Of a stretch of 64,000 nt of DNA, positions 1,427-60,875 are shown piece after piece. Each line of letters begins with the position of its first letter. The stretch's first letter is position 1. The notes below the pieces were generated by a model. It saw only the letters and a list, made by a program, of their open reading frames with translations, was not told where the DNA came from and did not search any database. The position numbers were made by a program, and so were the translations under genes. Origin of the DNA: Octopus vulgaris (taxonomy: Eukaryota); NCBI GenBank assembly GCA_951406725.2, contig OX597832.1, positions 66,092,001-66,156,000 on the forward strand. Direction: 5' to 3'.

Positions 1427-3212
1427 TATGTTTGACTTTTACTTTATATTTGTACAAGTTGGCTCCAAATCTCACCCAGAGACCTCAAGAGGCAACAGGT
1501 TGGAAGTTCGTATTGTTGTAATGCCTAGTGTGCCATATATTTGGTTTTCTATTTAGTGTTGTACTAGTGAATGCCTAAAAAAAAAACCAAAGTTATGTTT
1601 GTTTTAAAACTTGGGGTTACATAGAAAGTATTTTGCGTAGGATATAAGCAGTTCTCATGAGCACTATCTTTTGAATTTCTGCCATTTTGGGGTCTCCCGA
1701 TATCTGAGTTAGGTAGCGATCAGCCCCTTTTGCTATTATTCCCAGGGCACCTATGACAACAGGTATTGTTTTTGTCTTCAGGTTCCACATTTTGCTGATT
1801 TCTATTTCAAGATCTGTATATTTGCTCAGTTTTTGGTAGGTCTTGACAAATACGTGTATATCGATTGGGACAGTCATATCAATGAGGAGGCATGTTCTTT
1901 ATTTGAAGTCTTTCAATATGATGTCTGGCCTATTTGCATCTATCTTTCTGTCAGTTTGAATGGGGAAGTTCCAGAGGAGTGAAATGTGTTTATTTTAAAG
2001 CACTGGAGGTGGTTTGTGTTCCCACCAGTTTTTTCATGGGGCAAATCCAGGTTTTTGCAGATTACCCAGTGAATATATTCTGCAGCTCTATCATGCCTGT
2101 TGAGATACTCTGTAGGCGCTAGAAGACTGCACTTGGAGATAACATGATCAATGGTTTCATTTTGTTGTTGACATACACGACATGTTGGGTTACTACCGTT
2201 CTTTAATATGTTGGCCTGGTAGTTCCTTGTTGATAGGCATTGATCTTGAGCTGCTTTGATAAACCCTTCCCTTTCAGATTTTAAGCCAGAGGCCATTAGC
2301 CATTGATGGGTCAGGGCTTTGTCAACATCTGCATTATTCGCTCTCTTTGGGTATTTGCCATAGAGAGGTTTTTCTTACCATTTATCATTCAGAATATCTA
2401 AGGCAGCAGTTTTAGCACGGGTTTTCATGCGTTTAGATTTTTCTGTGCTTGTTTATTGTATGTCTAATACCGAAATGTGTTGTATTCGGAATTCACTTAG
2501 ATATTCCTTTGCCTGTTTTGTTACTGAGTATGATGCTTTCTTGTTTTCATGTTTTGAGACAAGTTTTAACATCCAGTCCTCAGAGATTTTCAGGTAGGTG
2601 TCTAGGCCAATTGTAGCAATCTTCATTGTTATTGCCAGTTGTAAAAGTCCACGATCTCCCTCTTTTCTTGGCAGTTAAATTCGTTCTATATCTACCTTAG
2701 AGTGGTGCATTCTATGCATTGTCAACAGTTTTCGTATTTTTCTGTCAAGATTAAATATTTCAGTAATTGACCAGTTAACGATATTGAAACTGTAAGTCAC
2801 GACTGGTATGGCTAAAGCATTGATCGCTTCGATCCTGTTTCTCGCATTCAGCGCTGTCTTGAGTATTGCTCTTACTCTGCGATAACATTCTCTCCGGATC
2901 CTTTCCTTCATCACTGAATGCTTTATTCCGTCCCCTTCAATTACCTCTAGGTACTTGTAGCTCTCCGCTGGGTCTAATTCTTTTATGACATTCTGCTGGT
3001 CAAGGTTAACGTTAGATGTTTCTGTCATTTTTCTTTTGAAAAATGTAGCTTTTGCACATTTATCGAGGCTAAATTGCGTTCTGATGTCATCGCTGAATAT
3101 TTAAACAATCGTTTGAGTTGATGGTCATTTTTGGCAAAGAGCTTTAAATCATCCACGTAAATGAGCTGATTTATATTTTTATCAAACATTTTATATCCGT
3201 ACTGCGTGATTC
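1426..3212 (-). mobile_element. 5'-truncated, frameshifted R4/Dong-like non-LTR retrotransposon (RT C-terminal half + CCHC + REL endonuclease), family 1
   Basis: GYKMFDKNINQLIYVDDLKLFAK (YVDD at 3148-3159). ORFs 2675-3028, 1940-2296 (CRVC..ETIDHVISKC zinc knuckle, RHD) and 1617-1877 (K..KY.DL..EI..MW, IPVVIGALG). ATT repeats on both sides. Confidence 0.92.
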
Positions 3213-18164: not shown

Positions 18165-18166
<2 letters not shown>

Positions 18167-19590
18167 GCTCTCTCGTCGTTCACAAAAAATTAGCGTTTGC
18201 AATACTTTTTTCGTTCGGCGTCAACAGCCCTTCCTATCTTGTTCTCCCTGTCCTGTCTTTTACTGTTATATATATATTTTTTTTACTGTTTATATATATA
18301 TATTTTTACTGTTTATATTTTTGTACTGTCGTTACTGTCTCGTTTTTTTACCATTTTTACCCCTCTGCGAAAAGATCTCAGAATTTTAATTGATTTGCTT
18401 TTCGCAGGAAGGAAAGTTTCTTGTCGAAGATACGTCTCGCTTTTATCCTTCGAAACGTAGAGTAGATGAAACTTTAGCGACTGAAGAAGGGGTTTTTTCG
18501 TTGTGTTAACTGTCCTGTACTCCATTTTTTGTTGTTTTAAAAAAAATGTCCTGTTCCTTTGGTTTGTGTCTATGTTTTCGTTTCTCTATGTGTTCGACGT
18601 CCCTTTGGTGTCCTGTACTCATATATGCGTGTATATGTACATGTAGAGGTAGGTACGTACATATATGTTTATATATATGCATATGTTTTATTTCTTTTAT
18701 TAATATATTATACGACTAAACGCACGCACCCTCTTAAGTAAGATTGTTCTGTATATCAAGTTCGCCTTGATATTAACTCTCACGTGCACTCTGCTCTTTC
18801 TTTCTTTCTTTCTATCCCATCCCCCCTTTTCGTCTTTTTCCCTCACTTAACTTGTCTCTTCCTCTCTCTCTCATTCTTCATTCTCTCTCTCCCCCTCACC
18901 CTTCTTCATGGTCTCCTCGCACCATTCCCTTTCTTCTCTCCCTTCCTCTTGCTCCTCCTCCCCCATTCCCGTCGTCCATCTGCGACGATACTTCCGCCGT
19001 AACTGCTAACGGTCTTTCTCGCCCGCCTTTTAAGGCTACTGGACGACTTTTCCTGCTCTCTCGTCGTTCACAAAAAATTAGCGTTTGCAATACTTTTTTC
19101 GTTCGGCGTCAACAGCCCTTCTTATCTTGTTCTCCCTGTCCTGTCTTTTACTGTTATATATATTTTTTTTTACTGTTTATATATATATTTTTTTACTGTT
19201 TATATTTTTGTACTGTCGTTACTGTCTCGTTTTTTTACCATTTTTTTACCATTTTTACCCCTCTGCGAAAAGATCTCAGAATTTTAATTGATTTGCTTTT
19301 CGCAGGAAGGAAAGTTTCTTGTCGAAGATACGTCTCGCTTTTATCCTTCGAAACGTAGAGTAGATGAAACCTTAGCGACTGAAGAAGGGGTTTTTTCGTT
19401 GTGTTAACTGTCCTGTACTCCATTTTTTGTTGTTTTAAAAAAAATGTCCTGTTCCTTTGGTTTGTGTCTATGTTTTCGTTTCTCTATGTGTTCGACGTCC
19501 CTTTGGTGTCCTGTACTCATATATGCGTGTATATGTACATGTAGCGGTAGGTACGTACATATATGTTTATATATATGCATATGTTTTATT

Positions 19591-19600
<10 letters not shown>
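18165..19600 (+). mobile_element. Non-coding partial tandem repeat (~890 bp unit, ~1.6 copies) with rearranged hammerhead motif: retrozyme-like family A
   Basis: 18165-18710 is repeated at 19053-19600. Flanked by (TA)n on both sides. No credible ORF. A dispersed third copy lies at 42497-42880. Confidence 0.85.
18359..18493 (+). ncRNA. Rearranged hammerhead-like motif, family A copy 1 (copies 2 and 3 at ~19257-19391 and ~42537-42668)
   Basis: GAAGGA (II) ... TACGT-C (18436)-TCGCT ... TCCTTC-GAA-ACGTA ... AGCGA-CTGAAGA (18481-18487). All three stems are perfectly complementary; GUC triplet. Confidence 0.75.
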
Positions 19601-19630
<30 letters not shown>

Positions 19631-20453: not shown

Positions 20454-20957
20454 TAGTTTTTCTAATGCTCGTTGCTTGGTTTTTCTTGGAGGGCTGGCCG
20501 TGATCTAGTAATCTCAAGATTAATCAGCCGAAATTACTACGATGATCCGGTTCTTGACTGAAGACTGAGGGTTTCGAATGTCCTGTCCGTGTTTATTGTG
20601 TCGTCTTCTAAGAGTTATACGTTCTTGTCCATGTTGTATTTTTCTACATACCTTAACATATATTCCAGGCGCCCCGTACCCCCCTTAACATTTATGTGAG
20701 CACATATTCTTAATAATTGGTACGACTCTCTGTTTGTCTCTCTCTCTCTCTCATTTTTACTTGATCTGTCCCCCTCTCTCTCTTTTCTCTCTACTCATCC
20801 TCTTTTTCTCTTCTCTTTCCTCTGATTCTTTGGTCTAGTCTTCCACTACCCTCCTATTTCTTTGTCTCGCTCTGCACTCACAGGTCATTCTTCGACACCC
20901 ATCCCTTCTCTCTGATTCCTTCTTTCTCTCTCTTCTCTCTCTTTGTTGCGTTTGTCC

Positions 20958-20991
<34 letters not shown>

Positions 20992-22367
20992 TTTGCTTCT
21001 CTTTCTTTTCTTTTCCCTCTTCTCTGTCACGTGACTGTTGGCCGAAATCTGCCTTTCAGTTCCTGACCCTCGTCTTGTTAACATCGCTGTTTTCGTCCGC
21101 CACTATAAAGGCTTTTTCCATTGCGCCAGAGAAAAAATTTGTTTGCTTGTTATCAGTCGTAAGACACTGTTGTTTTCACCGTTAATGCTTCTGTATTTCA
21201 TGTTTCTGTATTCCATTATTGTTTTTTTTTTTTTTTTTTTATATCTGTCCCTTTTGCTGTCCTGGTGTTCGTATGCATTCGATCCTTCTTCCAGGAAATC
21301 TACGCTTCCAGCTTAGTTTTTCTAATGCTCGTTGCTTGGTTTTTCTTGGAGGGCTGGCCGTGATCTAGTAATCTCAAGATTAATCAGCCGAAATTACTAC
21401 GATGATCCGGTTCTTGACTGAAGACTGAGGGTTTCGAATGTCCTGTCCGTGTTTATTGTGTCGTCTTCTAAGAGTTATACGTTCTTGTCCATGTTGTATT
21501 TTTCTACATACCTTAACATATATTCCAGGCGCCCCGTACCCCCCTTAACATTTATGTGAGCACATATTCTTAATAATTGGTACGACTCTCTGTTTGTCTC
21601 TCTCTCTCTCTCATTTTTACTTGATCTGTCCCCCTCTCTCTCTTTTCTCTCTACTCATCCTCTTTTTCTCTTCTCTTTCCTCTGATTCTTTGGTCTAGTC
21701 TTCCACTACCCTCCTATTTCTTTGTCTCGCTCTGCACTCACAGGTCATTCTTCGACACCCATCCCTTCTCTCTGATTCCTTCTTTCTCTCTCTTCTCTCT
21801 CTTTGTTGCGTTTGTCCCTCCTCTCTCTCTCTCTCTCTCTCTCTCTTCCTTTGCTTCTCTTTCTTTTCTTTTCCCTCTTCTCTGTCACGTGACTGTTGGC
21901 CGAAATCTGCCTTTCAGTTCCTGACCCTCGTCTTGTTAACATCGCTGTTTTCGTCCGCCACTATAAAGGCTTTTTCCATTGCGCCAGAGAAAAAATTTGT
22001 TTGCTTGTTATCAGTCGTAAGACACTGTTGTTTTCACCGTTAATGCTTCTGTATTTCATGTTTCTGTATTCCATTATTGTTTTTTTTTTTTTTTTATATC
22101 TGTCCCTTTTGCTGTCCTGGTGTTCGTATGCATTCGATCCTTCTTCCAGGAAATCTACGCTTCCAGCTTAGTTTTTCTAATGCTCGTTGCTTGGTTTTTC
22201 TTGGAGGGCTGGCCGTGATCTAGTAATCTCAAGATTAATCAGCCGAAATTACTACGATGATCCGGTTCTTGACTGAAGACTGAGGGTTTCGAATGTCCTG
22301 TCCGTGTTTATTGTGTCGTCTTCTAAGAGTTATACGTTCTTGTCCATGTTGTATTTTTCTACATACC

Positions 22368-22371
<4 letters not shown>
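20454..22371 (+). mobile_element. Non-coding tandem repeat (860/855 bp unit, ~2.2 copies) with rearranged hammerhead motif: retrozyme-like family B
   Basis: Units start at 20454, 21314 and 22169 and are near-identical apart from microsatellite/homopolymer lengths. Flanked by TA-type microsatellite. Confidence 0.9.
21276..21440 (+). ncRNA. Rearranged hammerhead-like motif, family B copy 2 (others with cleavage C at 20513 and 22228)
   Basis: GGCTG (II) ... TAGTAAT-C (21373)-TCAAGA ... CAGCC-GAA-ATTACTA ... TCTTGA-CTGAAGA (21418-21424); AUC triplet. Confidence 0.75.
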
Positions 22372-22405
<34 letters not shown>

Positions 22406-42438: not shown

Positions 42439-42496
42439 ACAATGTTTATATATATATATATATAATAATGTTTATAATGTTTATAATGTTTATAAT

Positions 42497-42880
42497 TTGT
42501 ACTGTCGTCACTGTCCTGTTTTTGTTACCATTTTTTACCCCTCTGCGAAAAGATCTCAGAATTTAATTGATTTGCTTTTCGCAGGAAGGAAATTTTCTTG
42601 TCGAAGATACGTCTCGCTTTTATCCTTCGAAACGTAGAGTAGATGAAACCATAGCGACTGAAGAAGGTTTTTTTTCTTTGTGTTAATCGTCCTGTTCTCT
42701 ATTTTTTGTTGTTTAATAAAATGTCCAGTTCCTTTGGTTTGTATTTATGTTTTCGTTTCTCATTGTGTTCGACGTCCTTTTGGTGTCCTGTACTCATATA
42801 TGCGTGTATATGTACATGTAGAGGTAGGTACGTACTTATATGTTTATATATATGCATATGTTTTATTTTATTTATTAATA
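42497..42880 (+). mobile_element. Dispersed, more diverged 5'-truncated copy of family A
   Basis: Aligns to 18320-18705. Ribozyme core and stems I-III are unchanged (cleavage C 42613, CTGAAGA 42658) while the flanks carry substitutions. Confidence 0.9.
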
Positions 42881-42997
42881 TATATATATATATATTCAGC
42901 AAAATTTAGATTCAAATGAATACGGTACGGTAGATACGGTAGATGCGCCAGAATTTTGCATGGTGTTATACATATAAATCCATGGGGTGATTATAAT

Positions 42998-48172: not shown

Positions 48173-48217
48173 TGGAAAACTTCATTGTTAAATCCAGTTG
48201 TATTATTATTATTATTA

Positions 48218-48650
48218 TTTTTTTTTCTTCTTTCAAATTTGCTTCCATTTCTTGCCGAGTGTCTTCCCGACTCCTAGGGCAAAGAAACTCATAGTATACA
48301 TTGGTAGGCCATTAAACCAAACTCAATAGTTCGTTCATTTAAAAAAATTTTTTTAAAGTTAAATTAAAATACATGAGCAGCAACAGTTCTCACATCGACA
48401 ATGCTCTTCTCAATACGTGTGATGTACCAGTTAAGACAATCTTTTGCACTTCTTGCAGGGATGGTAAACCAGGGATCATTCTCATATAATTTTTGGCTCC
48501 CTTCTTGATCATTCCTAGTGCTCCTACGATCACTGGTATTGTAACCGCCTTGAGATGCCACATTTTCTCAATTTCAATGAGTAGGTCTTTATATTTTCTG
48601 AGCTTCTCAAACTCTTTCGCTGAGATATTATGATCACAGAGGATGCTCAA
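48218..48650 (-). mobile_element. Severely 5'-truncated copy (3' ~430 bp) of R4/Dong-like family 2
   Basis: ORF 48390-48650 plus 3' UTR is nearly, but not exactly, identical to 48680-49110. ATT repeats on both sides. Confidence 0.92.
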
Positions 48651-48677
48651 GACATTACATTATTATTATTATTATTA

Positions 48678-51487
48678 CTTTTTTTTTTTCTTCTTTCAAA
48701 TTTTCTTCCATTTCTTGCCGAGTGTCTTCCCGACTCCTAGGGCAAAGAAACTCATAGTGTATATTGGTAGGCCATTAAACCAAACTCAGTAGTTCGTTCA
48801 TTTTTTTTTTTTTTTTTTAAAGTTAAATTAAAATACATGAGCAGCAACAGTTCTCACATCGACAATGCTCTTCTCAATACGTGTGATGTACCAGTTAAGA
48901 CAATCTTTTGCACTTCTTGCAGGGATGGTAAGCCAGGGATCATTCTCATATAATTTTCGGTTCCCTTCTTGATCATTCCTAGTGCTCCTACGATCACTGG
49001 TATTGTAACCGCCTTGAGATGCCACATTTTCTCAATTTCAATGAGTAGGTCTTTATATTTTCTGAGCTTGTCAAACTCTTTCGCTGAGATATTATGATCA
49101 CAGGGGATGCTCATGTCGATCAATAAGCAAACTTTATTGTTTTGGTCTTTCACAACAATATCTGGTTTATTGGCCTTGATGGTTCGGTATGTATGTACTG
49201 GAAAGTCCCACAGAATGGTTACATTTTCTCCTTCAGTTACAGCCTCAGGGTGTTGATTATACCACTTGTCGGCAGTTTTGATATTGTAATGCCGACTTAT
49301 TAGCCAGTGTAGATATTGGCCAACTCTGTCATGTCTTAATTTATACTCCACTGGTGCTAAGACTTTACATCCAGAGATTAGATGGTCCACTGTTTCAATC
49401 ATGTCGTTGCAGAATCGGCATTTTGGGTCTGCTCCATTTTTCATCACATTGGCCTGGTAGTTCCGGGTTAATAGGCTTTGATCTTGAGCAGCCAGGATGA
49501 AACTTTCGCTCTCTGCTTTTAGCCCTCAGCTCCGCAGCCACTGATGGGTTTGCTTCTGGTCAACATCAGCTTGTTTGCTGCGGGTCACATATTTGCCGTG
49601 CAGAGGTTTCTCCTCCCACCTATCAGCCAATTGCTCGTGCGCTTTTTTCATTGCCATCAATTTCACCTTCTTTGCAACAATAGTTGCCGTACTTCCCTCG
49701 GGTTGTTCAGTTTGGGTATCCTGCACGAGATCAATAGCAAATTTTTTGCTTTCCTTGATGATAGAATGAAGCTTCTTTCGTCTCTCGTGATTTTCCACGA
49801 GCTTTAGCATCCAGTCATTCGATATTTCGAGATATTTGGCCAGTCCAATTGTGGTTGTTTTGTAAGCTAGTTCAAATTGGATCAGGCCTCGAGCTCCTTG
49901 GGCTCTGGGAAGGTAAAGGCGATCTACGTCTGCCTTTGGGTGGTGCATCCTATTACAACTCAGCAGCTTGCGTATTTTTCTATCTATATTCTTTATTTCA
50001 CTCATATTCCAGTTCAACACATTGTAGCTATAAGTAACAACTGGAACTGCTAAGGAATTTATAGCTAATACCTTGTTACGTGCATTTAGTTCAGATTTCA
50101 GGACTGCACGAACTCTCCTATAACATTCCTTCCTGATTTTCTCTTTCATGCTTGCATGCTGAATACCAGAGCCTTCATTTATCCCTAAATATTTGTATGT
50201 CTGTTCTTGCTCAAGCTCTCTTATGACTGTGTCAACATCTAACACGACTGAATTTGTGGTCTTCACTTTCCCTTTCTGGAAAGTGGCCTTGGCACACTTC
50301 TCAAGTCCAAACTCCATCCCGATGTCATCGCTGAATGCTTTCACTGTGCGCAATAGGCCTTCAAGTTCATTATTGTCTTTACCATAAAGTTTTAAGTCAT
50401 CCATATAAAATAGATGGCTTATTTTTTTATTGGCAATTTTATACCCATACCCTGTTCTGTTTAATTCACTTGTAAGGGGTATTAGGGCTATGCAGAATAT
50501 TAAAGGTGAAGGTGAGTCACCTTGAAAAATTCCACAGTTGATGTTTATATTTTCTGAGGCAAGTACTCCATTAGAGTGGTATAATTGGAGATTCGTATTC
50601 CACAACGACATATTGTGCTTCAGGAAGTTTGAAATCACAGGGGAAATTTTAAAGATGTCCAGCGATCTCAAGATCCATGGATGCGGTATACTGTCGAAGG
50701 CCTTTTTATAGTCAATCCATGCGGTGCTGAGATTTCTGCGCTTGTTGTGACAGTTCTCAAGGATCATACGATTGATTAGCAGTTGATCTTTGCATCCGTA
50801 AGACCTCGGCGGCACCCTTTTTGTTCAATGGGGAAAATATCGTTCTTCTCCATGAATGCATATGTTTTCTCCGCCAGGATAGATGTTAGGATTTTATACG
50901 TGGTGGATAGACAGGTTATAGGCCGATAGTTTTTTGGAAGGTTGGTTTCGTTATTCTTTGGGAGTAGGTAAGTAATGCCACTTGCTAACCATTCAGGTGT
51001 TTTCTTTGGGTCTCTCAAAATCCCATTAAGCAGCTGAACTAGCTTACCGTGTGCGCACGGGAGCGATGCGAGCCAGAAATTCGGCACCCTATCTTTACCG
51101 GGGGATTTCCAATTATGGGCCTTCGTGAGTGCCTTTCTTAGGTCTGCTATTGTGATGTCTTCCCATGCTTGTTGTTGTAAATTTTGGTAGGATCCTTCAG
51201 TTTGTATAATCCAGTCTGCATTTATGTTGTACGTCTTCTTGTCACTCCAAATCCTTTCCCAAAAGTTTTGAACTTCTTCCATGGGAGGAGGGTCTTTAAC
51301 GGTTACTTTCTCCTTCCCTATTTCTCTGTAGAATTTTTTGCCATTGGATGTGAACAGCTTATTTTGCTTGTAAAACTTGTTTCTCTTCTCAAATCTTCGT
51401 ATTCTTTGGGCTTTTGCTTGGACTTTTTGTTTCAGCGTTTCTTTTATTGATATCAGTTCTTCTCTTGGTGAGGATCCAAATTTTCTC

Positions 51488-51490
<3 letters not shown>
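48678..51490 (-). mobile_element. Young 5'-truncated R4/Dong-like non-LTR retrotransposon (RT + CCHC + REL endonuclease), family 2, two frameshifts
   Basis: ORFs 50776-51490 (NWKSPGKD, NYRPITCL), 49526-50815 (WIDYKKAFDS, GIFQGD, YMDD) and 48854-49447 (CRFC..HLISGC, RHD, KPDIVV..LID, K..KY). Both ends are embedded in (TAA)n. Confidence 0.95.
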
Positions 51491-51570
<80 letters not shown>

Positions 51571-51676
51571 CATCATTATTGAGTGAGAGAGCAGTTCATG
51601 CCATCAAAGTGACACTGGGGTAAAATATACGTAGCCCAATATACCCATCATGACTACCCGTCTGATAAGGGTTATA

Positions 51677-57468: not shown

Positions 57469-58438
57469 CAGAGGGATAGATAGAGTGATAGAAGTTTCAG
57501 TAACTATGTCGAGGTGAATGTAGGAATGTACCGTTCAAATATTTTCTCTCCAGCAATGTCGCTTCTGGTTTGGTTGAACTTCTCTTCACAATATATTCCA
57601 ACATTGTTCCAGACTGACTAATGCCTTTAAGCTGAATTTGGTGAGCGGGAATTCGTTGGAAATCTGACGAATATAGAAATACGTAGGTTTGTGTGTCTAT
57701 GTTTACTCACACGTACATGTGCATGCGCCTTTGCTTGTGTGTTAGTTGTTCCAACGCGTTGACAATCGCTGGTGTTACGAGCGTATTTCGGCAAACACAA
57801 TCCTATTAAATATCAGCCTCGAATGTCAGCAGGGTAAGATCCTGAATGTCACTGAAAGAAATTATAAAAAAACGAACAAAAGACAAATATATTTTTCTCT
57901 TCTCATCTCACAATTCTGTAGAGGAATGCAGGTGCATCTCAAGACTTCTACCATTTTTTTGATTGAACCTCCATCTAATAGAACCTATTTGATGTTCGTG
58001 TAAGTGATTTCTTCTTAATTTTATAGTACACAAAAACAGACAGACACATACACACGCATACATACATACACACACGCTCGGTCATTTCAAAATGTAACTA
58101 CACGTGGATTGTTGGCGATTTTTCCTACGTCTTCTTTTTCCTCTGTCTCCTGTTTCTGAAGAAGAGTTTTAATCGAAACGTAAAACTAACTTGCATTCCT
58201 TCCCTGAGCATCTGTTAATAGTTTGCATGTACCACGTCCTCGCGTTCTCGCTTTTTCCTTGTTGCATTTTCATTGTTTTTTGGTGGGGGGATTATATATA
58301 CATATACAGATAGAAATATAACGTGATGTAATAGGGATTTGGAATACGGGCAGGTACCTCTTTAGCGCTCTGGTATAATCCAGTCAAGGCTAACTACATC
58401 GATGTTCAAACCTTTACCGATCCTTGTGAGCTCCACCC

Positions 58439-59834
58439 AGCGCATAGGTAAGACCTTGAACAAACCTGCATAGGAATATCTACCCCTGATGAATATGCAC
58501 TGTAACTAAACTGGTTAAATGGACACAAATGCTACATCAAAAGTCATTAGGATACTTATGCAACCGAAACACGTGTCGGATTGGAATTTAATGTGAATTT
58601 AATGAGATGAATACTGTAATGAATTTTGTATAATTGTATAATTGTATAATTCTCTACTCTTCCTTAAGATTCTTGCATACACACATGCAGACACACACAT
58701 ACACACACATGTATGTAGTATCAGATGATAACCAGATGGAGCCAAATCAGGATAGTAGGGACGGTGATCCATCAGTTTATGGCCAGAGTCATGCACAGTA
58801 GGCATTAAATGCAAGGGTTTGTGTGCGGGGGCATTGTGCAGGGGAAGCAAAACCCCATTCGTCAATGTTCCTGTGCGTTTGGTCTTCATAGCCTTTCGTA
58901 ATTGCCTTAGAAATTTGGCATAGTACTCTCCATTGATGTTGCGGGCCTTTTGAAGATAGTCGATAAACACGATGGTTTTTGCATCCCCAAGACTGAGCAG
59001 CCCTGCAGATGAAACTACCTTGGTCTTTGGAACAGGTGCGGAAGAGTGTTTCTACTGAATAGAATACGTCATTTTCTCTGGTTCAAGCTGGTGAAGCCAA
59101 CACTTATCCTGATGTAAGGAAACATTGAAGGAAACCAGCTGGATGTGCCTCAAACAATATCAGATTTTCCCGGATTGTGGTAAGCGCATAGGTAAGACCT
59201 TGAACAAACCTGCATAGGAATATCTACCCCTGATGAATATGCACTGTAACTAAACTGGTTAAATGGACACAAATGCTACATCAAAAGTCATTAGGATACT
59301 TATGCAACCGAAACACGTGCCGGATTGGAATTTAATGTGAATTTAATGAGATGAATACTGTAATGAATTTTGTATAATTGTATAATTGTATAATTCTCTA
59401 CTCTTCCTTAAGATTCTTGCATACACACATGCAGACACACACATACACACACATGTATGTAGTATCAGATGATAACCAGATGGAGCCAAATCAGGATAGT
59501 AGGGACGGTGATCCATCAGTTTATGGCCAGAGTCATGCACAGTAGGCATTAAATGCAAGGGTTTGTGTGCGGGGGCATTGTGCAGGGGAAGCAAAACCCC
59601 ATTCGTCAATGTTCCTGTGCGTTTGGTCTTCATAGCCTTTCGTAATTGCCTTAGAAATTTGGCATAGTACTCTCCATTGATGTTGCGGGCCTTTTGAAGA
59701 TAGTCGATAAACACGATGGTTTTTGCATCCCCAAGACTGAGCAGCCCTGCAGATGAAACTACCTTGGTCTTTGGAACAGGTGCGGAAGAGTGTTTCTACT
59801 GAATAGAATACGTCATTTTCTCTGGTTCAAGCTG
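58439..59834 (-). repeat. 744-bp period tandem duplication containing a mariner transposase fragment
   Basis: 58439-59090 is repeated at 59183-59834. Identical ORFs FIDYLQKARNINGEYYAKFLRQLRKA..HNAPAH..HRPYYPDLAPSGYHL. Confidence 0.93.
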
Positions 59835-60875
59835 AAATGAAGTGTCTTGCTCGCGTACACAACACTCCGCCGGAGATTGAGCCGAATCACTTAGCCACGC
59901 ACCTTCCGATAGTATCATATTGCACTGTAAAATCACATAGCTTTTTTATGTTCATGGTCATATTGTATTGCGTGCATTAAATATACGTAAGCGATATGGA
60001 TATGTACTCCTCTTTGCAGGGTGAATGTTATGCAAAAATAAACGTAGATCGTTGTGTAAAGTTAAAATAAGTGATCTTAAATCCTGCGATGAAGTTTGTA
60101 TCAACTCTGCCTCTTTCTTTCTCGAAAAACTTAACTCCATCATTTTTTCAGTTTGTCCTCCCCATTTTACACAAATTGTCCAACGCACAATTTGTGTAAA
60201 TTCGTTCGATACTCCCCTTTTCTGCTGACCAACGTACCTCGGCATGACTTCTATCTTGTAGGAACACAACTATACCCTTTTCAAACTTGATACTATTTCA
60301 AAACATGCAATTCACTGAATACAATTGCACTCCCTTCGCCCCCTATACATCAATGACATTGCATTTGGAACTTAGTCCCAATTCGTGAGCCATTATTTCA
60401 TGCGATGAGGTTCATCTTTGGTTTAAACCAGAGCCAACCACATCTCAAACATGAAGTGAAGGACATCTCTACTTTATATGTATCTACATTTACAAAATGA
60501 CTTACAGGTCAAAACCTTTTACATCCCATAAAATACCCAAGCCACATCCATTACCAATTCCCATCTCCGTTTCCATACCTGACATTTCCTTTTGGATTTT
60601 ACCATTCTTACAAGTTTTAACTAGTTTCCTTATTACAGAAGGACTGGTTAAGGTAGTAAAAAACTGCATCAAATGTTTTCTATGCAGCTATTTCTATATA
60701 AATGGGGCCCATCGGAAATTAATCGACAGTGGGCGTCTAAATGAGCAGCACTGTCTGGCACAACGCCTGCCATTTCTGCGAAAATAAACGTATCTTTTGC
60801 TATCTCTGTTCGCCTCCCCCACCTTTCTCTCTCTCTCTCCTCCCTCTCTTTCTCTGTCACTCTCTCTATCTTTTT

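Follow-up and report, generated by a model that had tools for sequence, protein, structure and literature searches.

Can a hammerhead ribozyme still be assembled when a whole domain divides its catalytic strand and the two halves lie on either side of the cleavage site, and does one RNA molecule suffice for it? The question is raised by tandem repeats in a 64,000-nucleotide, microsatellite-rich stretch of Octopus vulgaris DNA (OX597832.1, positions 66,092,001 to 66,156,000; this whole stretch is called the window below), which belongs to a 2.8-Gb genome in 227 contigs. Eckert et al. (2023) describe hammerheads as three blocks, S, G and C, whose non-circular types SGC, CSG and GCS cleave during transcription; in the passages of their paper available to us, block C (I'-CUGAnGA-II) is assumed to be interrupted by at most one or two nucleotides, and six permutations are counted (PMC10085705). 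The RNA of the mobile repeat considered here is probably a hammerhead ribozyme whose catalytic strand is both reordered and split by a domain, a reading made from sequence.

A putative hammerhead with a divided catalytic strand

The motif occurs in two repeat families, A and B, whose copies in the window are the following:

20454..22378, plus strand: family B tandem retrozyme array, about 2.2 units of 855-860 nt, with a variable 5' end
20454..20580, plus strand: B copy 1, 5'-truncated within the hairpin loop; cut predicted after 20513
21276..21440, plus strand: B copy 2, complete split-core hammerhead, from the order descriptor and the nested fold model
22131..22295, plus strand: B copy 3; cut predicted after 22228
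18165..19611, plus strand: family A tandem retrozyme array, about 1.6 units of 898 nt, with (TA)n flanks
18359..18493, plus strand: A copy 1, split hammerhead with GUC; cut predicted after 18436
19257..19391, plus strand: A copy 2, split hammerhead; cut predicted after 19334
42449..42888, plus strand: solo A copy, 5'-truncated and older; ribozyme at 42537-42670, cut predicted after 42613

From 5' to 3', the B unit reads outer stem, hairpin, stem II strand, interaction strand, stem III, AUC, stem I, short linker, II', GAAA, III', interaction strand, I', CUGAAGA and outer stem. The circular block order C-G-S of types I, II and III is absent, the order here being II, S, G, I'-CUGA. The parts of B copy 2 are:

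21276..21288, plus strand: outer stem P0, 5' strand, partner 21427-21440; from the fold and two-sided changes in the alignment
21289..21351, plus strand: accessory hairpin, with G10.1 as the next base; mean pair probability 0.92
21352..21356, plus strand: stem II, G10.1 strand, upstream of the cleavage block, partner 21385-21389; from the swap test and the alignment
21357..21365, plus strand: 5' strand of the I-II interaction helix, partner 21404-21411; from covariation and analogy with PMC10085705, seen in part
21366..21379, plus strand: block S, comprising the stem III 5' strand, the AUC triplet and the stem I 5' strand; cut predicted after C21373, with a truncation footprint
21385..21399, plus strand: block G, comprising II', GAAA (21390-21393) and III'; from the descriptor and the nested model
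21398..21403, plus strand: putative hinge of this copy, a 3-nt bulge then GA at the kink-turn position
21412..21424, plus strand: I' and CUGAAGA (21418-21424), half of block C
21427..21440, plus strand: outer stem P0, 3' strand, 3' of A9; from the fold and two-sided changes in the alignment

The outer stem pairs 21276-21282 with 21434-21440 and 21284-21288 with 21427-21431, the hairpin stem is 21289-21298/21342-21351, stem III is 21366-21372/21393-21399 with C17 at 21373, and stem I is 21374-21379/21412-21417. In A copy 2 the corresponding elements are the outer stem (19257-19262/19386-19391), the hairpin (19263-19272/19296-19305), stem II (19306-19310/19345-19349) and the CUGA-type core (19379-19385). 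A descriptor of this order with three stems of at least 5 bp gave six matches in the window, namely the three B and three A copies, and none on 100 dinucleotide shuffles of it. The fold stability corresponds to z = -3.06 for a 174-nt B region and z = -1.52 for a 149-nt A region, and an Rfam search of the window ribozymes at gathering and E<=10 thresholds returned no match.

A preliminary description of this DNA had proposed a permuted hammerhead on a conserved scaffold, and every helix that it named was found in both families; its view that the outer stem and the hairpin replace the A9-G10.1 link is likewise supported. Some of its details have to be amended. The outer stem, said to follow CUGAAGA directly, is present, but in B two unpaired bases intervene; the B hairpin is one U-G pair longer than was given; and the 7-bp extension described for A exists, but of the window copies only that at 18359-18493 has it without a mismatch, the 37 family-A cores taken from the first 60 loci showing a perfect extension in two cases and one mismatch in 34. 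Furthermore, the helix presented as a distal extension of stem III actually pairs the strand that follows II with the one preceding I', and is therefore the I-II interaction helix.

Covariation across subfamilies

Pattern searches of the genome yielded 3066 matches of the B lineage, against 1 in the control, and, outside family A, 2596 of the A lineage, against 12 in the control, with 1037 candidates for family B and 2138 for family A. From these lineages, 183 distinct copies were grouped into 58 clusters, and the medoids of 29 were used; visual inspection removed the other 29 clusters, which were truncated or chimeric, bore deletions, had decayed strongly or stood close to a cluster in use. 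The core is standard across the 29 medoids: CUGAnGA and GAAA are present in all of them, the extraction pattern having required the core, U16.1-A15.1 in 29/29 and G10.1-C11.1 in 26/29, and none has G at H17, which the parser also required. Large A-lineage subfamilies (L235, L244, L151, L067) carry GUU or AUA triplets with CUGAUGA, and Naiad-type copies carry GUA.

As read from these sequences, stem I, stem II, stem III and also the helix joining I and II covary across the subfamilies of this genome. In a swap test that allowed equal register freedom to the upstream and downstream strands, stem II tracks the upstream strand over 12 distinct II' sequences, with 4.67 of 5 pairs for the own strand against 3.61 for swapped ones (0/100000 permutations). 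When 18 B-lineage copies chosen by hand are aligned with MAFFT and the result is left unedited, 82.7% of the cells pair and two-sided changes occur in 27 of the 42 pairs; none of 500 shuffles reached as high, and slid registers gave 29-46%. Since the subfamilies are related, these permutation and alignment counts measure tracking and are not probabilities. Two-sided changes affect four of the five pairs of stem II, 5/7 in the inner outer stem, 3/5 in the hairpin and 7/8 in the interaction helix, and none of the 6 bp of the distal outer stem in this alignment. The swap test of the outer stem (5.74 vs 5.70) gave no discrimination because the region is U-rich.

Relation to known hammerheads

The order II, cleavage block, GAAA block, I'-CUGAnGA is absent from the literature searched: in a full-text search lying mostly outside subscription journals and preprint supplements, neither a split block C nor a non-circular hammerhead belonging to a Naiad was described. 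Like SGC, CSG and GCS (PMC10085705, in part), the RNA has the S-G-C cyclic sense, two pseudoknots, a short I-to-II' linker (3-7 nt) and a standard core; with SGC and CSG it shares the helix between the strand that follows II and the one that precedes I', which in those two types is required, as established by mutation. Unlike all three, it has stem II at the 5' end, a domain of at least 60 nt at A9/G10.1, and all three links together. In the passages available, CSG was known to Eckert et al. as two metagenome sequences only, and the source of the three types is metatranscriptomes, metagenomes and one weak bacterial case, whereas here thousands of copies lie in an animal genome in a retroelement context. 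The same topology with stems I and III of at least 4 bp was found in 0/120 metagenome loci among the matches listed and in 0/20 viral loci, both searched with narrow, kink-turn-specific patterns.

The minimal dimeric hammerheads of Penelope-like elements (PLEs; Cervera and de la Pena 2014, PMC4209133, in part) have in common with this RNA the PLE context, the tolerance of an insertion between 9 and 10.1 and a conserved G10.1-C11.1. Those ribozymes are of type I order, with a helix III of 0-2 bp, a palindromic loop and a single extra nucleotide, unlike the non-circular order, the helix III of 5-7 bp and the whole-domain insertion found here. The analogy with them drawn in the preliminary description is therefore weak, because they dimerise through a helix III of 1-2 bp and a palindromic loop (PMC4209133) and stem III here is 5-7 bp.

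One molecule or two

The preliminary description had also proposed for the RNA a rod whose two loops kiss, within one molecule or between tandem units, and had considered that cleavage might require a dimer. Its geometric worry is sound: stems III and I/II point in opposite ways, so the distance to be closed is a genuine puzzle, one that Eckert et al. note for SGC too (PMC10085705, in part). The nested model of B favours stem II in cis (0.82) over the rod (0.04). We favour, with moderate confidence, a monomer as the active RNA, that is, one molecule folding back on itself.

In the B lineage, a kink-turn between stem III and the interaction helix would provide the bend for such one-molecule closure. 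Its signature is kept in the copies outside the young subfamily, with GA before III in 137/143 and, in 139/143, a GA that follows a 3-nt bulge of variable sequence; one of the contributing searches required the kink-turn bases and two others did not, and the published octopus Naiads carry them as well. The 3b-3n pair agrees in most cases with the ion-folding rule for kink-turns (PMC4382518, in part), having 3n=G or 3b=C, and not both, in 13 of 21 medoids, and is Watson-Crick in one. In a rough geometry built on A-form dimensions, a kink of 50 degrees brings the strand ends to about 11 A from each other. The young B subfamily has UA (21366-21367) in place of GA at the kink-turn, to be read as a Kt-23-like A-U at 2b-2n, a comparison with literature seen in part, or as a 4-nt bulge; its 7-bp stem III leaves a geometric gap of 32-57 A. 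Family A has a near-symmetric AGUA/GAA loop in the place of the hinge and no 3-nt bulge in that register; we take this loop to be loop-E-like. As the B transcript grows, stem II is predicted to close in cis first, with a probability of 0.83-0.86 up to 21424 and 0.58 at 21440. In the nested model of family A, stem II falls from 0.55 to 0.01-0.05 as the transcript lengthens. The arm lengths of the coral and EuTe Naiads, judged by eye, call for fraying if closure is in cis.

Rather unlikely, though to be taken seriously, is that the same split hammerhead acts mainly as a head-to-tail, strand-swapped dimer and needs two units for cleavage. Stem III and the interaction helix would then form a rod, and the core would join S and G of one unit to II and I'-CUGAnGA of the other. 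By geometric inference, an antiparallel two-fold dimer closes at any rod length, and this length varies, by eye, from about 15 to 23 bp among the published Naiads. Such a dimer would also suit family A and some Naiad relatives that have no clear hinge, a straight family-A rod leaving a gap of 78 A. Dimer-dependent hammerheads are known from PLEs and amphibian retrozymes, the B rod is the most stable single nested state scored (-32.6 vs -27.4 kcal/mol for the scaffold plus II), and for SGC, where the same distance puzzle was noted, the passages available of Eckert et al. contain no concentration series. Yet a straight rod needs no kink-turn, and about 96% of the B-lineage copies keep one; the stem II of nascent B is predicted to close first in cis; and the pairing partners are at most 75 nt apart, against some 860 nt to the next unit. 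Moreover, the stems are of 5-7 bp, the GAUC palindrome of the B copy in the window is lost in other subfamilies, and most Naiad 3' ends are discontinuous at the border of III and the interaction helix.

Possible traces of cleavage

A template that ends at the cut would leave insertions starting at the cut. Insertions were sampled in genome order through an anchor near the 3' end, with the first 100 of 1341 B matches and the first 64 of 402 A matches, less two without sequence; only the 5'-most unit of each array was kept, six array members were removed and three likely duplicate B locus pairs were retained. Relative to the predicted cut, 26 of 73 B insertions start at +1 to +25, five of them exactly at +1, against a single one at -24 to 0 and none at -49 to -25; there are none at 0 to -17, and 31/73 extend past the site. 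For A, 12/61 ends fall at 0 to +24 vs 1/61 at -25 to -1, and ten ends placed at -143 are alignment artefacts that lie upstream of the site regardless. The Fisher p of the pile-up is 1.9e-5 for B and 5.6e-3 for A. This cliff at +1, the expected trace of a template ending at the cut, supports cleavage in vivo, albeit indirectly; microhomology with (TA)n probably shapes the spread of the 5' ends.

It is improbable, in our judgement, that the structure is conserved and no cutting takes place in vivo, the pile-up arising because the reverse transcriptase (RT) stalls on the folded RNA and because A/T stretches share microhomology with (TA)n. The spread of the ends over +1 to +25, with many of them at A/T-rich positions, and the 31/73 B insertions that cross the site would fit such an origin. 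However, the pile-up stops at +1, where five ends lie, and none are found from 0 to -17 though that stretch is TA-rich as well; an RT at +10 has already displaced I' and III'; and the stems covary around unchanged core bases and a triplet that obeys the NUH rule. The same covariation largely rules out, and leaves with hardly any probability, an ordinary contiguous hammerhead of type SGC in which stem II would be made by the bases right after CUGAnGA and the upstream match would be incidental: four bases after CUGAAGA can pair with II' in the window copies of A and B if shifted by 2, but the in-register pairing is 0 bp in 6/6 window copies, and the upstream strand tracks II' whereas the downstream one does not (own 2.75, swapped 2.64; 31579/100000 permutations over 12 distinct II' sequences).

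Two other kinds of observation carry no weight as evidence. Contig starts near 21370 are explained by an assembly branch at a variant 30 nt further on, and the unit-length, self-closing contigs from three runs presumed to be RNA and one large run would arise equally from tandem repeats as from circles.

Carrier elements

The repeats have the traits of non-LTR retrozymes, being non-coding, tandem, dispersed and provided with one hammerhead per unit. Among the frames listed, the A and B units hold low-complexity frames only, and no GIY-YIG plus RT ORF of an autonomous Naiad occurs in these 855-898 nt units; among the ORFs listed, no RT is linked to the ribozymes in the flanks of the loci. The family B array has a fixed 3' end that runs into (TA)n near 22371, and in the plus-strand loci examined a single 3' position of the array is followed by (TA)n whereas the 5' starts vary. 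Past the core, (TA)n begins after about 90 nt in 61 young-B cases and after 210-220 nt in 45 A cases. The targeting of (TA)n and the partial tandems point to Penelope-like elements, and the fixed 3' end of the copies fits the internal initiation of PLE RT on its RNA (PMC11167929, in part).

Like the metazoan non-LTR retrozymes (PMC7229834; 10.64898/2026.07.22.740005; both in part), families A and B consist of non-coding tandem units with one hammerhead each, dispersed as monomers to multimers, low in GC and PLE-derived. Those retrozymes carry type I hammerheads in units mostly of 170-400 nt, and up to 972 bp in the available part of Li et al. 2026, unlike the split non-circular hammerhead and the (TA)n-targeted units of 855-930 nt found here. 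With Naiads the two families share the (TA)n target and the same split ribozyme, located at the 3' end of Naiad_Ovul and Naiad_Obim (PMC8557442, in part); unlike Naiads, they encode no EN/RT and show no clear similarity beyond the ribozyme design. Their (TA)n target, fixed 3' end and common 3' ribozyme design are those expected of non-autonomous elements mobilised by Naiads, as which they may be classed.

Judged by its sequences, family B is very young, 40 of 40 scored copies being identical. Cephalopod Naiads are described as long-inactive remnants by Craig et al. 2021 (PMC8557442, in part), and the Naiad ORF-end motif has seven matches in this genome; yet the B copies are identical, so the driver may be another (TA)n-targeting PLE. 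In three of the seven ORF-end matches the range allowed a linkage to be sought, and no ribozyme was found at the expected distance among the matches listed. A PLE-like ORF fragment (L411:22-426), with 7510 first-look candidates in the genome, belongs to a possible alternative driver clade; its likeness to PLEs is presumed from motif resemblance, and it had no match in Pfam. Ribozyme subfamilies are often adjacent or inverted within one (TA)n tract (L126, L143, L212, L101/L102, L417/L418), and mixed tracts, such as that with A and B in the window, resemble the inverted insertions and insertion hot spots of PLEs.

Naiad 3' ends

Naiads are elements of 3.4-4.4 kb that target (TA)n, and no canonical hammerhead is reported for them in the available text of Craig et al. 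2021, who flag 'HHR_core' and eight 'HHR_half_core' cases, including octopus and squid Naiads (PMC8557442). We read by eye the 3'-terminal 340-400 nt of 53 Naiad consensus sequences (File S5 of that paper, in part). The split order was recognised in nine, Obim, Ovul, Amil, Aacu, Anas, Movir-2, EuTe, Bfor and Esco, of which Amil, Aacu and Anas are three near-identical coral Naiads, Bfor has a stem I of only 2 bp and Esco is decayed. Besides the two octopus elements, these cover coral, box-jelly, ctenophore, EuTe and squid Naiads, the last with a decayed copy. The corals and Bfor plainly show both the outer stem and the hairpin that flank the split; the octopus Naiads have a distinct hairpin and a weak outer stem. 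Six other Naiads, all from nematodes (Nbra-1 to -3, Hcon, Hpol and Asuum), have hammerheads of type CSG, again by eye; five more contain cores to which no order could be assigned, and in 33/53 no hammerhead core could be parsed by eye within the terminal 340-400 nt. The nematode CSG hammerheads are clean, with a long I-II interaction helix. At the 3' ends of Naiad_Ptep, Smim and Dst-1/2/4, the core halves lie in other unusual arrangements, possibly further permutations; in Naiad_Ptep, S, G and I'-CUGAAGA are clear and a hairpin precedes GAAA instead of a normal stem II.

In the present genome, the motif of the octopus Naiad ribozyme has 315 matches (control 0). In the locus L516, a Naiad 3' UTR that is truncated, the script recovers the ribozyme with its kink-turn and one mismatch in stem III. 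Descriptors of the usual order are blind to the split order, which we offer as an answer to the apparent lack of hammerheads in Naiads.

Other features of the window

At 58113-58185 lies a hammerhead-like remnant of canonical order, with a 5-bp stem III, GUC, CUGAAGA and GAAA and with weak stems I and II, which may be a decayed minimal PLE ribozyme. A broken non-LTR retrotransposon with RVT_1 and zf-RVT matches occupies 48201-51603 on the minus strand and has at its 3' end a tandem duplication of 464 bp; near 1943-3100 there is a related fragment. At 58439-59835, a 744-bp tandem duplication contains mariner-type transposase fragments (Transposase_1). Both duplications are unrelated to the ribozyme repeats.

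Model and significance

The model we propose combines a cis-folding split hammerhead, a cut that sets the 5' end of the unit and the spreading of copies by a Naiad-type PLE; as a whole, we consider it reasonably likely. The RNA would assemble a standard core (CUGAnGA, GAAA, NUH and G10.1-C11.1) from blocks that follow one another as S, G and C, the non-circular sense, with all three connecting links present and the chain opened at A9/G10.1, within block C. Outer stem and hairpin would probably be stacked, thereby keeping A9 next to G10.1. Stem III would bend at the kink-turn or bulge, and the interaction helix would run back, capping stems I and II. The cut would set the 5' end of a unit-length RNA, and (TA)n would be nicked by the RT/endonuclease of a Penelope-like element, which most probably belongs to the Naiad clade. 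Reverse transcription would begin internally at one constant position, lying about 90 nt beyond the core in B and 210-220 nt beyond it in A, and the RT would either run off at the cut or read through uncut, circular or template-jumped RNA, giving the tandem arrays.

A broader reading makes the RNA a gated split permutation, the seventh of the hammerheads, and an ancient ribozyme of the Naiad 3' UTR in at least four animal phyla that would cut only on head-to-tail docking of two units or on bending by a kink-turn-binding protein. With the gating included we regard this as doubtful; without it, a split permutation that is active and linked to Naiads is highly likely. If gating were true, cleavage would count the tandem copies or sense a host factor.

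In conclusion, the split block C would break the explicit assumption of the paper on non-circular permutation that CUGAnGA and stem II are inseparable. In animal genomes, where they number thousands of copies and the predicted cut has left its footprint, the non-circular hammerheads would acquire a biological role, and surveys of retrozymes and PLEs built on type I descriptors would undercount. Finally, a kink-turn in a hammerhead and a free domain at A9/G10.1 would offer new handles for structural work and for the design of RNA switches.
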